A DNA stretch of 64,000 bases. It comes from Naegleria gruberi. Lineage: Eukaryota. Location of the stretch: NCBI GenBank assembly GCA_000004985.1, contig GG738881.1, one strand, 5' to 3'. Every line of letters starts with the position of its first letter. The stretch's first letter is position 1. Made by a program: the position numbers and the translations under genes. The notes below the pieces were generated by a model, which saw nothing but the letters and a program-made list of their open reading frames with translations, was not told the DNA's origin and searched no databases. Positions 45,002-55,521 of the stretch are shown piece by piece.

Positions 45002-46545
45002 TTATTGTTGATTTTGTACTAATTGAGGTTGTTGAAAGTGTTGTTCATTTAATTGACCACTTTGTTTATAAATTTCAAATTGTAAAAGTGCGCCTTCTAA
45101 ATTTCTTCCTTCATTAAAAATTTGTTGAGCAACTTGAGGTTTTAATTTAGTTTTTGAAATGAATTGAGTAATTTCTAAAAAGAATTCCAAATCAAAATTA
45201 GAATATGGTCTAATATGATAAATAAAATTAGAAATTAATAGAGAATTTTCATGTTTTTTTAAAATGAAAGAAGTATCAAATGATTTTGTATGCTTATCAC
45301 CATTATTATCTAGGAAAATAACATGACCATGAACAGAGACACATAAACGTCCAATTAGAGCATTTGTTTCAACTTGTCTTGTACTAAATGATAATGCATC
45401 TGATGTTATTCTTTCAATATTATGTTTAGTATTTGGTAGTGCATTAAAGAATTTTAAAATATTACTTGATGAAATGATACTTGATTTTAACTGTTCATTA
45501 CATTCTGTTTTCCTAGATTTTGTATCTTTTTGATCAGGTATATTGAGAATATCACGTGAAAATTGTTGTAATTTTTGAAATGCTTCAATTTCAACTGAAT
45601 CTTCAACATAATCAACATATTCATTTGTAGAATTTGAATAGGTAATAAATGCATCTTTTGCAAATAATGTTTGTAATTCTGTTTTTCTACAATCAATATG
45701 ATCAAATAAATTAGTTAAATATTTTCTTAAATTATCCTCTGATAATCCTTCAACTAAATTATATGGATTAATTTGTGGAAGTGTACTACCACTCTTTCTT
45801 AATTGAGGAGGTATTGGTGCATCATCTAATACTTCTAATTGTGGAAATATTTTACATAATGTAATTACATCTTCATCAGATGCAACTCTATAACATTGAT
45901 TTCCTCTCAGTAATAACATTTTTAAAGGTAGTCCTTTCAATAATTTTAAACTCCCAATGCTGTACATGAATCTTTACAATTTTCTACAACTGATGCACAA
46001 ACTTGTCTAATTAATCCATCATCATAACCATTATTACTCATTCCTTTAAGTGTATCATCAACACACATAAAATCTAATTTTACCAATTGACCTTCTTCAC
46101 TTGTACGTTCTAAAACCCATTCTTTCAACTTTTCACGGAATGGTGTTCTTTTTGGTCCTCCACCACTTTGAAATCCACCTCTTGTATTACCAGAATTACC
46201 TCCTTGATATCCTCCACGTGGTTGATAATTACCATCATTACCACCTTGATATCCTCCTCTTCTACCTCTAAATGAGCCTCCACCACGAGTATTATTACCT
46301 TGTTGATTATATCCACCACCACCACCACTACCACCATCACTATTATTATTGTATGAATTATTTCCTCCTTGATTAAATCCTCCTCTACCACCACCTCCTC
46401 CTTGATAGCCTCCACGTGTACTTCCACTATTTTGATAGCCTCCACGTGTACTTCCACGAGAGTTACCTCTAAACGATCCTCTAAATGATCCTCTGAATCC
46501 GCCTCTAGTATTACCTCCTCTAGTTGATGGATATGGTGTTGACAT
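45002..46545 (-). CDS. Nuclear mRNA export factor NXF1/Mex67-like (RGG-rich N-terminus, LRR, NTF2-like, TAP-C-like). The two ORFs (45002-45967 and 45946-46545) need a frameshift or intron to join.
   Basis: LKGLPLKMLLLRGNQCYRV...ITLCKIFPQLEVLDDAPIPP aligns with NXF1 KIKGLKLEELWLDGNSLC...[22 protein letters not shown]. An NTF2-like region follows. The upstream ORF has RGG/FRG repeats and an RBD-like end. Confidence 0.5.
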
Positions 46546-46910
46546 TTTTTTTTAAATTATAAAAATGTATTTTGAATTATTTTTATATCAACTCTACAAG
46601 TAAATTTACTTCATCATCAATGAATCTTGAAGAGATGAAGAAAATAGATACCATTGATGAATGATCAAACTGTCCACTCACTGTATTCATTTTGAGGTTA
46701 TTGTAAAGTTACTTGTCAACCAAATTCAAATCTAAAAAAAGATTTTGAAAATGAACTTCAAATTGGATCTTCAACCTCTTGAAAAAAGCCTTCACATCTA
46801 TTTATTGAAGAACTCTACCCTCAAAAAAAAAGCCTTCAAATCAATACAACTATAACACATCACTATACCTATTATTAATTCTACTAAGATAGTCTACTAC
46901 TAACTATATA

Positions 46911-47729
46911 ATGAAAAAATCCAATAACAATAATAAGAAAGCATCATCTTCATCTTCATCATCTTCGGAACAAGCAGATAGTATTGATATTATAAAATTT
47001 CCACGTACTCATCACTTATTTTCAACCAATAAAGAAGTAACTCGTGATGATTTAGTAATGGATGAAAAGGATGCAGCTAGAGAATTCTATGCACCATCAC
47101 TTGGACCACAAGTAACATTGGAAGAAAAAGTTGATGGATCAAATTTGGGAATTACATTAGATATTGAAAGTTATAAATTAAGATGTCAAAATAGATCACA
47201 TTATGTTACTTGTCAATCACATGCACAATTTAAAACATTACAATTATGGTTAGATGAACATTCAAGTGAATTATTTTCATTATTAAGTGATAATAATAAT
47301 GGATATATTTTATATGGTGAATGGATGTATGCTAAACATTCAATTTATTATGATCAATTACCTGATACATTTATTGCATTTGATATTTATGATAAACATG
47401 CAGAGAAATTTGTATCAGTTCAATTAAGAAATCAATTACTTTTAAATCATGCACCAACTATTTCAATTGTTCAACCACTTCCAATTTTAAATTCACCACA
47501 TTTAACAAAACAAGTTTTATTGAATTTATTAGAAAATCAAAAATCAATTTATTGTTCACCCGAATTGAATCAACCAATTGAAGGTGTTTATGTTAGAGTT
47601 GATGAAGGAAATTATTTAAAAACAAGATCAAAGGTTGTTAGATCAGATTTTATTCAAGCAATTGATACTCATTGGTCTGGTCAAGAACTTGTTAAAAATA
47701 GAGTTGATTTTTCATTAAAATATAATTAA
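46911..47729 (+). CDS. ATP-dependent RNA-ligase-like nucleotidyltransferase (KxDG motif).
   Basis: FPRTHHL followed by EEKVDGSNLGI (motif I K-x-D-G-x-N), YGEWM (motif III-like) and EGVYVRVDEG (motif IV-like). Confidence 0.5.
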   Translation: MKKSNNNNKKASSSSSSSSEQADSIDIIKFPRTHHLFSTNKEVTRDDLVMDEKDAAREFYAPSLGPQVTLEEKVDGSNLGITLDIESYKLRCQNRSHYVTCQSHAQFKTLQLWLDEHSSELFSLLSDNNNGYILYGEWMYAKHSIYYDQLPDTFIAFDIYDKHAEKFVSVQLRNQLLLNHAPTISIVQPLPILNSPHLTKQVLLNLLENQKSIYCSPELNQPIEGVYVRVDEGNYLKTRSKVVRSDFIQAIDTHWSGQELVKNRVDFSLKYN

Positions 47730-52324: not shown

Positions 52325-53333
52325 ATGAGTTCAGAAACCGTTGCATATTTTGAAGTGGATGGTCAAGCCTTTGTTATTTATAGTGAATTAATCACAACTT
52401 CCACAACAACAAACTCTTCTCTCACCTCCTCACTTACTCAATGTACTTCTACCACCACTAATAATAATAGTGAAACTTGTAAAAAGATTAAAATCACACT
52501 CCGATGGAGAGAACATGTACTATAATCATCATGATATTCAATTTAAGCCTAATACTCACCAACATAACTCTATTCATAATACATCATCATTATCATCATT
52601 CACTACTAATAATAATACTAATAATAATACTATTAATAATAATACTAATTCTACTAAATCATCTAATAATAATGAATATAATTTATTTCAAATAATTCAT
52701 TCATCACTTGTAAAACAAGATTCATCAAAATTTAAATATCGATTAAATTATTTAAATAATGGAAATATAAATTTTATAATTAGTATGATTGTAAATCCAT
52801 CAGGTGATTATATATTATCAAATATAGAATTAATAAAATCAACAAATACTAAAACAGGACATTTATCTTTATTTAGATATTTAATTATATGTAAAGAAAA
52901 TGATGAAAAAATAATTCAAAAATTAACAAAACAATCAAAACATTATAATGAATGTATAGAACAATCTAAAAAAGTAATTGAAGAAAAAGATAAAATGGAA
53001 AAGGAATTATATTCACAATTTATTATTTTATTAAATTCTAAAAAGGAAGCCATTAGAAAATATAATACAAATAAAAATCAAATTGAAGAATTATTTGAAA
53101 AGGAAAAAGATAAAAATAGAAAATTAAATGAAGAAAATAAGAAATTACAATTACAAATAGAAGAATTAAAAAAACAAATGAAAAGTAACAAATTTAATCA
53201 AATGGAATCTCCTAAAAATGGATATTCTAATAATAATAATAATAGTAATAATTATCAAACACCTAGAAAACAATCTAAAAATGTTACAAGTTTTGATGCA
53301 GAAGATTTATTAGAAGATTTATCATTTGAATAA
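52325..53333 (+). CDS. xrcc4: XRCC4-like NHEJ factor (head domain plus coiled coil). The 5' exon/frame junction near 52400-52480 is unresolved.
   Basis: EKELYSQFIILLNSKKEAIRKY aligns with human XRCC4 [32 protein letters not shown] resembles ITLTDGHSAW. A long K/E coiled coil follows. Confidence 0.55.
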
Positions 53334-53468
53334 AAAAAGATGATTTTAAATTTGCAACATGTTCAACTTGTTGGAGGCTTCTTTCCAGCCTTTTGGTTCT
53401 ATCTTTGGCACATCATTATGATCCAATCACAACCATCATCATCAAATAAAATATATTTTATAAAAAAA

Positions 53469-54255
53469 ATGTCTCTCTCATCAATAGTTTCCGTTCCATT
53501 ATCAACATCAACATTGTACAATGGTAATTCAGATAAAACATCTGATCCTATTGAATTTCCAATAATAAGAAAGGAATGTTTAGGAGATGGTAAATTTATT
53601 AAAATGAGAAGATATACACTTGGAGCAGAATGTAAATTATGTGGTAAAGTTTATACAAGTTTTTCATGGAAGAAACATCCTAAAGATACAACCTATCAAC
53701 GTACAATAATATGTCCTGTTTGTGCTATTACAAAGAATTTATGTCAAGTTACAGTAGTTGATTTAGATTATGATATTCCAGCCTATATTAGAGATTCAAC
53801 TAATTTATCTTCATCATCAGGTCATATTACTGAAGGAAATACAAATAGTGCTTTTAGTGGACAAAAATCAACTGTAACTTCTGCTTACTTTTCATCTCAA
53901 GCTGAAAAATTATTAAGTGAAGGTGGTACAAATAGACATTTATTAAGAAATGAATTAGCAAATAGAAATGTTTTAAATGAATTAAGATCAAATGAATATG
54001 ATGATAATTATAATTTAAATATTACTACTACTACTAGTAATATGAATAATAATAATATGAATGATATAAATACAAATACAAATGAAAATCTAGAAAATGA
54101 TGGAACAATAATTGAAGAATCGACTAAAATAATTGATTATAAAACATTACAAATTGGACCAATTAATAAGAATATTAATGAAACATCTGATGAATTTATA
54201 GAAGAAAAGACAATATTAGAATATTTAATAATGTATGCAACAGCAGCAGCAGGGG
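53469..54255 (+). CDS. Pre-mRNA splicing factor RBM22/Slt11-like (N-terminal zinc-finger region). The 3' part is lost in the 506-N gap.
   Basis: ECLGDGKFIKMRRYTLGAECKLCGKVYTSFSWKKHPKDTTYQRTIICPVCAITKNLCQVTVVDLDYDIPAYIRD parallels RBM22 [37 protein letters not shown]...[28 protein letters not shown]. Confidence 0.65.
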
Positions 54256-54761
54256 NNNNNNNNNNNNNNNNNNNNNNNNNNNNNNNNNNNNNNNNNNNNN
54301 NNNNNNNNNNNNNNNNNNNNNNNNNNNNNNNNNNNNNNNNNNNNNNNNNNNNNNNNNNNNNNNNNNNNNNNNNNNNNNNNNNNNNNNNNNNNNNNNNNNN
54401 NNNNNNNNNNNNNNNNNNNNNNNNNNNNNNNNNNNNNNNNNNNNNNNNNNNNNNNNNNNNNNNNNNNNNNNNNNNNNNNNNNNNNNNNNNNNNNNNNNNN
54501 NNNNNNNNNNNNNNNNNNNNNNNNNNNNNNNNNNNNNNNNNNNNNNNNNNNNNNNNNNNNNNNNNNNNNNNNNNNNNNNNNNNNNNNNNNNNNNNNNNNN
54601 NNNNNNNNNNNNNNNNNNNNNNNNNNNNNNNNNNNNNNNNNNNNNNNNNNNNNNNNNNNNNNNNNNNNNNNNNNNNNNNNNNNNNNNNNNNNNNNNNNNN
54701 NNNNNNNNNNNNNNNNNNNNNNNNNNNNNNNNNNNNNNNNNNNNNNNNNNNNNNNNNNNNN
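54256..54761. other. Assembly gap (506 N).
   Basis: N run. Confidence 1.
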
Positions 54762-54768
54762 ATTTCTT

Positions 54769-55521
54769 CTATTCAGATTCAGTTGGTTCACTAGTGGTAC
54801 CAGAAGTATTATTATTAGAATTGGTAGGAGGACTATTTGAATCATCAATATCATTATAAGATCTAGTATTACCTAATAAATCAGCAATGACACCTTTCAA
54901 TGGTTCCACTTCTTTTTTATCAATTAAATCAAATTCATTAACAAAACACATAAAATGTTTAAAAGCAGTATTTAAATGTCTATCTAAATTCAATTGTTGA
55001 GCATCTTTAAAATGATTGTAATACATGTGAGCATAAACTCTAAACATTCTTTTAAAAATAGTTTTAACAATAGTTAAGAATGATTTTGGAAATTTAGTTG
55101 GATCAGAAGGGAATGCATTTTCATCATTTACAATATGACAAATCCAATCCATTAATAAAGCAACATATTCAGGTGCAGATAATTTTGTTGCTTTTTTATA
55201 ATCTTTACCATCCATCCATAAATATTCATATTTATCACCTGCACACATTATTGGACAAGTATCACGTGTACAATTTTCACCTAAACTACCATATAATAAA
55301 TTTGTAGTATTATAAAAATCAACTGTATTAATAGCTAACCATTCATTCAAATTTTCATCTTGTGGTAATTTGACTGCTTCCGTTAAATCTCCACTTCCAA
55401 GTGTTTCTTTTTTATATTTATGTAATGTATGTTGATTACTACCTTTAATAAATTTATGTTTTGGACGAAATGTCTTGTTACGATCAAGTGCGTTTTTTAA
55501 ATTATTAACAATATTTGACAT
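54769..55521 (-). CDS. mob1: MOB kinase activator (Mob1). The C-terminal end abuts the gap.
   Basis: EAVKLPQDENLNEWLAINTVDFYNTTNLLYGSLGENCTRDTCPIMCAGDKYEYLWMDGKDYKKATKLSAPEYVALLMDWI is a near-canonical Mob1 core. Confidence 0.9.
   Translation of the reverse strand: MSNIVNNLKNALDRNKTFRPKHKFIKGSNQHTLHKYKKETLGSGDLTEAVKLPQDENLNEWLAINTVDFYNTTNLLYGSLGENCTRDTCPIMCAGDKYEYLWMDGKDYKKATKLSAPEYVALLMDWICHIVNDENAFPSDPTKFPKSFLTIVKTIFKRMFRVYAHMYYNHFKDAQQLNLDRHLNTAFKHFMCFVNEFDLIDKKEVEPLKGVIADLLGNTRSYNDIDDSNSPPTNSNNNTSGTTSEPTESE

Follow-up and report, generated by a model that had tools for sequence, protein, structure and literature searches.

A probable domain-minimal RNA ligase gene of Naegleria gruberi, from a clade fused elsewhere to RNA end-healing domains

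The window analysed here is a stretch of 64,000 nucleotides of the Naegleria gruberi contig GG738881.1, and at positions 46911..47729 on its plus strand the listing of open reading frames shows a single ORF, with an ATG start and a TAA stop, for a protein of 272 aa. From end to end the translation shows 100% identity with a “predicted protein” of N. gruberi (EFC42168.1 / XP_002674912.1 / UniProt D2VM54, locus tag NAEGRDRAFT_70015) encoded on a contig of 380 kb, which makes the window nuclear DNA of this species, and the ORF listing and this database match together describe a complete single-exon gene. Its composition is host-like (GC 0.27, GC3 0.08) and matches that of the neighbouring genes, which are ordinary eukaryotic ones and code for a Ras GTPase, BORCS6, an NXF-type export factor, XRCC4-like and STL11-like proteins and an Asp/Asn hydroxylase. 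Orthologs are found in N. lovaniensis (70% identity), Willaertia (57-58%) and Acrasis (47-51%). Because GC3 is host-like, the neighbours are eukaryotic and orthologs occur across Heterolobosea, contamination and recent horizontal transfer were both ruled out as origins of the gene.

The gene is adjoined by the NXF-like and BORCS6 genes. An intergenic region of 365 bp (46546..46910, taken from the ORF listing) separates it from the RGG/NXF-like gene, which is divergent from it, and presumably holds the promoter. Within that neighbour an RGG-rich ORF (45946..46545, minus strand) overlaps an NXF-type NTF2 ORF (45002..45967, minus strand) by about 20 nt in a different frame, and the two ORFs (45002-46545) are probably parts of a single NXF1/Mex67-like gene for mRNA export, interrupted by a short intron. 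Farther along, between 50001 and 60000, the GC content of the window falls to 0.16-0.24 as compared to 0.29-0.35 across 1-44 kb; the ORFs of this AT-rich part include the XRCC4 coiled-coil-like one (52470..53333) and the STL11-like one (53340..54794).

An earlier note on this DNA had proposed, from a KxDGxN motif and plausible motifs III and IV, a stand-alone RNA-ligase-like nucleotidyltransferase, and the Pfam family PF09414 (RNA_ligase) indeed matches residues 67-242 with 103.9 bits against a cutoff of 27 (E=1.3e-29). The motif (K73-V-D-G-S-N78, nt 47127-47144) lies far beyond a chance occurrence, and the protein is a stand-alone lysine nucleotidyltransferase of the RNA-ligase type. For a closer look the protein was aligned with 26 homologs (27 sequences, 38-70% identity) from Heterolobosea, Amoebozoa, cnidarians, one green alga, Paratrimastix and metagenomes, and all six classical motifs of the covalent nucleotidyltransferases proved invariant in this alignment, with the consensus EEKxDGxNxG (I), QxR (Ia), GEW (III), FD (IIIa), EGxxxR (IV) and RxKxVR (V). 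Motif I is EEKVDGSNLG (aa 71-80, 47121..47150, plus strand, as are all features that follow), with E71, E72, K73, D75, G76, N78 and G80 invariant, K73 (nt 47127-47129) being the lysine predicted to accept AMP. Motif Ia is QNRSH (aa 93-97, 47187..47201; Q93 and R95 invariant), motif III is LYGEWMYAKH (aa 134-143, 47310..47339; G136, E137 and W138 invariant) and motif IIIa is FIAFDIY (aa 154-160, 47370..47390; F157 and D158 invariant). In motif IV, EGVYVRVD (aa 224-231, 47580..47603), E224, G225 and R229 are invariant and Y227 nearly so, while motif V, RSKVVRSDF (aa 239-247, 47625..47651), keeps R239, K241, V243, R244 and F247 throughout. Motifs III and IV, plausible in the earlier reading, are confirmed (E137, E224 and G225 being invariant in the 27 sequences), and the motif I lysine and motif V, whose conservation was in question, are equally constant at K73, R239 and K241.

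The remainder of the protein is short. A low-complexity tail rich in Lys, Asn and Ser occupies aa 1-28, that is, the 84 nt before 46995 (46911..46994, from alignment and model); the orthologs of Naegleria and Willaertia have it, those of Acrasis and the bacterial homologs lack it, and its residues 1-22 are predicted to be disordered (pLDDT <50) in an AlphaFold2 model built from the alignment. This model has a mean pLDDT of 85.8 and a pTM of 0.84, with disorder confined to residues 1-22. The tail is followed by a motif specific to this clade, KFPRTHHL (aa 29-36, 46995..47018), in which K29, F30, P31 and T33 are invariant in the alignment and H35 is nearly so (residues 31-40 have a pLDDT of 92), and by a TRDDL segment (aa 44-48, 47040..47054) with invariant R45 and D47; there are only about 40 structured residues upstream of motif I. 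Towards the C-terminus a single short helix (residues 245-250) is modelled, and the alignment and model place at the position of the C-terminal domain of other RNA ligase families a short tail, HW...KN (aa 254-263, 47670..47699), with W255 and N263 invariant. No OB or BRCT domain was found in the protein, and with only 28 residues after motif V the absence of a DNA-ligase context, as first described, is borne out. The window protein is, in short, a nucleotidyltransferase domain on its own, to which invariant segments specific to the clade are added.

By sequence, the protein fits none of the families Rnl1 to Rnl5, and its clade is distinct. The likeness to Rnl2 that the earlier note had seen is correct insofar as Rnl2 and the trypanosome editing ligase REL belong to the same Pfam family, PF09414, and goes no further: the sole NCBIfam match, to the Rnl2 equivalog TIGR02307, is sub-threshold with 13.6 bits against a cutoff of 197.15, and the C-terminal helical domain of T4 Rnl2 and REL1 is absent, there being only 28 residues after motif V. 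T4 Rnl2 and trypanosome REL1 are just 12-21% identical to the window protein, whose N-terminal KFPRTxHL is particular to its own clade and whose motif IV ends in Arg, at the position of the Lys in Rnl2. Since it has none of the accessory domains by which Rnl1 to Rnl5 are defined, the protein is not a true Rnl2.

Nor does the protein belong to the other families. The Rnl5 enzymes NgrRnl, the characterised RNA ligase of N. gruberi, and DraRnl are 15-18% identical to the window protein, which has no match among the NCBIfam models of the DRB0094 family and lacks the N-terminal domain of about 126 aa that NgrRnl requires for adenylylation and nick sealing (PMC4408790). NgrRnl is, moreover, the product of a different gene (XP_002669268.1, as compared to XP_002674912.1), and the profile of our clade aligns to it at residues 203-321 only. 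The Rnl3 enzymes of archaea and Aquifex (Pab1020, MthRnl, PpaRnl, 3QWU) are homodimers of about 380 aa, whose N-terminal, dimerisation and C-terminal domains are all missing from the 272-aa protein; their structures are the best profile-to-sequence matches in the PDB (E ~2e-5), with coverage of the nucleotidyltransferase core only. That profile search reached Rnl3 and Rnl5 structures weakly, and a single-sequence phmmer search of the PDB returned nothing meaningful. RNA_lig_T4_1 (PF09511), the family of Rnl1 and of the Trl1 ligase domain and one of the candidates named at the outset, had no match in the Pfam scan of the window protein. Fungal and plant Trl1 combines a ligase of that Rnl1-like family with a kinase and a 2H CPDase, whereas the window protein belongs to PF09414, and the domain order of Trl1 is the reverse of that in the fused relatives described below, which add a DSP phosphatase. 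The stand-alone tRNA ligase of Branchiostoma (Englert 2010) was considered as a relative and set aside, since it is Rnl1-like with a 2'-phosphate requirement according to PMC4408790.

Comparison of the model with ligase structures gave the figures 15.5 for NgrRnl (5cot, Rnl5), 15.3 for TbREL1 (1xdn, Rnl2), 14.8 for T4 Rnl2 (1s68, Rnl2), 13.7 for MthRnl (Rnl3), 12.8 for PpaRnl (Rnl3), 12.5 for T4 Rnl1 (Rnl1) and 12.3 for Trl1 (Rnl1-like), with DNA ligases at <=11.5 and capping enzymes at <=8. Foldseek agrees, with a TM of ~0.45-0.55 and 12-18% identity to every RNA ligase family. The second type to which the protein had been likened, RLIG1, does not hold up: the C12orf29/RLIG1 homolog 9c6l has a figure of 6.5, and neither by sequence nor by fold is RLIG1 closer to the window protein than other ligases are.

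N. gruberi is unusually rich in RNA repair enzymes, and Unciuleac and Shuman listed by accession 13 ATP-dependent RNA ligases of this organism, namely seven Rnl1, five Rnl2 and NgrRnl (PMC4408790). XP_002674912.1 is not in that list, and the count should therefore be at least 14. The protein is nevertheless already known at the sequence level, both from the databases and from a wholly computational study (Moreira et al. 2015, PMC4599027) in which the very same XP_002674912.1, under the name “NgRNL, RNA ligase 2 of Naegleria”, was compared by motif alignment and Pfam E-values with DpRNL, a Diplonema papillatum protein described as a “deviant RNA ligase 2”. DpRNL shares with our clade the motif IV Tyr, the motif V R-x-K-x-V and a short C-terminus, and the model of it in that paper begins just upstream of motif I. 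Both proteins were placed under Rnl2 there, and neither healing-domain fusions nor a bacterial operon were mentioned. In the literature searched we found no biochemical data for any member of the clade and no follow-up to PMC4599027.

Contrary to what had been supposed at first, the clade is not sparsely distributed. A profile search of 1.84 billion cluster representatives returned 878 clade proteins at E<=1e-30, and the clade occurs in bacteria (at least 562 species), viruses, many protists, fungi and cnidarians. The 260 closest representatives were typed for domain content with Pfam (ten examples) and local HMMs (all), and in 150 of them the ligase is joined to P-loop kinase, 2H phosphoesterase or DSP phosphatase domains, combinations with duplicated ligases included. 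Stand-alone ligases number 110 of the 260; the fusions comprise 52 kinase-ligase proteins (KIN-LIG), 44 with the order 2H phosphoesterase-DSP phosphatase-kinase-ligase (2H-PTP-KIN-LIG), 18 phosphatase-kinase-ligase proteins (PTP-KIN-LIG) and 36 with other combinations of healing or duplicated ligase domains. The fused domains are known in Pfam as 2H-SAK (PF22547) and PTP-SAK (PF22784), for “Swiss Army Knife”, and the kinase as AAA_33; the SAK names and a description of these multidomain RNA repair proteins reportedly go back to Burroughs and Aravind in 2016. The ligase domain of the SAK-domain proteins shares 43-51% identity with the window protein and is hit by the same profile at E=1e-72 to 1e-116; these proteins carry the 2H, phosphatase and kinase domains in addition, whereas the window protein is the ligase module alone.

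Eukaryotic fusions occur in Aphanomyces, Mucochytrium, Peranema and Rhodomonas and in the fungi Armillaria, Tuber and Phanerochaete. A 1641-aa protein of Aphanomyces combines RWD, MJ1316, AKAP7-type 2H and kinase domains with a ligase at its C-terminus, and some eukaryotic repair proteins carry two PF09414 domains per chain, for instance the ligase-kinase-ligase of Peranema. On a eukaryote-like metagenomic contig (L081, 1087-4236) a 2H-SAK+PTP-SAK gene and an adjacent KIN-LIG gene, with about 600 bp between them, resemble a four-domain protein that has been split, and at least five other 2H+PTP / KIN-LIG pairs share a contig, as judged from equal contig sizes. The same clade is encoded by giant-virus MAGs (L086, L088) and by other viral contigs (for instance L083, L085, L089 and L094, within L083-L162), some with the full 2H-phosphatase-kinase-ligase fusion; on many viral contigs of 100-570 kb the ligase stands alone, and a gene for a P-loop kinase lies 1-3 kb upstream of it. 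In a neighbour-joining tree without bootstrap, in which deep branching is unreliable, the heterolobosean orthologs form with metagenomic relatives a clade of 16 stand-alone proteins, and the bacterial ligases of the operon described below form a clade of their own. Home-made HMMs detected no 2H, PTP or kinase healing domain in the 64-kb window, and no Naegleria 2H+phosphatase partner was among the 34 matches of a word-limited search with a 2H+PTP query, the sensitivity of which is limited.

We consider it likely that the product of the gene is a minimal ATP-dependent RNA ligase that consists of a nucleotidyltransferase alone and belongs to the clade elsewhere fused to SAK healing domains. The enzyme class, an ATP-dependent RNA ligase that would act via K73-AMP, AppRNA and attack by a 3'-OH, is assigned with good confidence on the grounds of its fold, its homologs and its conserved motifs. 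As in the homologous T4 Rnl2 and NgrRnl, Lys73 would attack ATP to form a ligase-AMP, the AMP would be moved onto the 5'-phosphate end of an RNA, and the 3'-OH of an RNA would attack the adenylylated end so that the break is sealed. 2H phosphoesterases open RNA 2',3'-cyclic phosphates, and P-loop kinases phosphorylate 5'-OH ends, as in Trl1 and T4 Pnkp. Since the partner 2H and kinase domains heal RNA ends, the ligase in the fused proteins can be understood as the sealing step: the 2H phosphoesterase, the DSP-type phosphatase and the P-loop 5'-kinase would first turn breaks with 2',3'-cyclic-phosphate and 5'-OH ends, such as ribotoxin cuts in tRNA, into 3'-OH and 5'-phosphate ends. In Heterolobosea the ligase is a polypeptide of its own, with any healing partners necessarily encoded elsewhere in the genome. 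Judging from the fusions and the gene linkage in other organisms, the Naegleria ligase would most likely provide the sealing step of such a heal-and-seal RNA repair, and plausible substrates would be RNAs, tRNA among them, that are broken during stress or by ribotoxins.

In bacteria, the homologs (about 40% identity over residues 26-265, counting one genome per species) have a different setting, the following description of which is based on the 80 best loci, at least 562 species having a homolog. There a gene of its own encodes the ligase (about 229 aa), which in 71 of the 80 loci follows an ABC-ATPase-type ORF of the same strand, and by crude ORF calling at least 52 of the 80 have the exact order ATPase (~470 aa), small protein (~176 aa) and ligase (~229 aa) with 4-bp overlaps (for instance L053:4068-6681, L047:3873-6690 from Desulfobulbus alkaliphilus DSM 24258 and L036:4216-6711 from Endozoicomonas arenosclerae, within L001-L080). 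The ATPases have the domains AAA_15, AAA_21 and DUF3696 and match PADLOC HEC-03B over their full length (E=5.7e-129); the small protein does the same with HEC-03A (E=8.4e-29), and PADLOC has no model for the ligase itself. HEC-03 is a validated anti-phage system of two genes, an ABC ATPase and a VapC-like PIN protein, and the paper that describes it never mentions a ligase (bioRxiv 10.1101/2024.01.29.577857); the loci of the closest bacterial homologs thus have three genes where the published system has two. Related ABC-ATPase/nuclease systems that are grouped with HEC-03 include Menshen NsnB and PARIS AriA. The small protein is regarded as PIN-like because of the PADLOC match, the HEC paper and the invariant residues D10, E61, D120 and D141. 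The three genes sit within type I R-M operons, and in one locus (L062) they are flanked by a PglZ gene. No description of the unit was found in the searchable literature, whose coverage of comparative genomics is incomplete, and the ATPase-PIN-ligase unit is apparently unreported so far.

This setting raises the possibility that the ligase is a conflict or immunity enzyme, one that resets the cell by re-joining RNAs cut by a dedicated nuclease or that serves as a counter-measure against ribotoxins of viruses or of prey bacteria, which would be a variant of the heal-and-seal explanation with another biological role. The regular linkage to the ATPase, the strong HEC-03 matches of both partners to a validated anti-phage system, the location inside R-M operons and the occurrence of the ligase on viral contigs all speak for it. 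However, no HEC-03-type ABC ATPase or PIN-like gene flanks the Naegleria ligase in the window (eukaryotic gene order being little informative on function), a PDB profile search and a Pfam scan of 22 members gave no significant match that would confirm the PIN fold of the small protein, and the part played by the ligase in the bacterial operon is putative. In our view a role in conflict is a tentative alternative. Doubtful in our view is that the protein performs a partial reaction, making AppRNA or sealing only pre-adenylylated ends while a partner supplies the substrate-binding domain. Isolated nucleotidyltransferase domains of Rnl2 are not known to carry out the full nick-sealing reaction, and the window protein has none of the accessory domains on which Rnl1 to Rnl5 depend for full activity on their substrates, which counts against a complete ligase. 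The 28 residues after motif V and the want of an N-terminal OB-like domain point the same way, as does the observation that Rnl2 and Rnl5, once deprived of their accessory domains, lose the overall reaction but retain step 3 (PMC4408790). The invariant KFPRTxHL, RxD and HW...KN segments may, on the other hand, stand in for an accessory domain, and a self-sufficient unit is suggested by the 110 of 260 closest relatives, and most of the bacterial members, that are stand-alone at the same size.

A sealing function in DNA repair can be argued from PNKP, a DNA-repair enzyme that also joins a kinase and a phosphatase; the 2H phosphoesterases fused to our clade, though, act on RNA 2',3'-cyclic phosphates, which are impossible for DNA, and the OB domain of a DNA ligase is missing. 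Neither the automatic names “DNA ligase III” and “ATP dependent DNA ligase” of the Paratrimastix and Armillaria homologs nor the weak similarity to PF01068 noted in PMC4599027 keep us from regarding a DNA ligase as very unlikely. An mRNA-capping-type guanylyltransferase or an inactive pseudo-enzyme is more improbable still, to the point of being negligible: the motifs Ia, IIIa and V are of the RNA-ligase type, there is no OB domain and no Pfam capping match, and a pseudo-enzyme is disfavoured because the catalytic residues are all invariant across bacteria, viruses and eukaryotes.

Starting again from a complete RNA ligase that seals healed ends, we may speculate, with considerable doubt, that the clade is a sixth type of RNA ligase family, self-sufficient by virtue of KFPRTxHL/RxD and HW...KN, that the bacterial members are the “undo” part of HEC-03-type defence and re-join RNAs cut by the PIN protein, and that the heterolobosean ligase descends, by domestication, from this conflict module. 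If this were true, an otherwise abortive anti-phage response would become reversible.

For the window itself the result adds little; the wealth of RNA ligases in N. gruberi had been remarked on before. A ligase of this small, domain-minimal kind could also be of use as a laboratory reagent. What goes beyond the known is the addition to the published list of 13 ligases and a clade that lies outside Rnl1 to Rnl5 and is yet widespread, together with a bacterial unit in which its members are joined to an HEC-03 module; this unit leads to the testable idea that an enzyme for RNA repair may accompany some of the nucleases of abortive infection.
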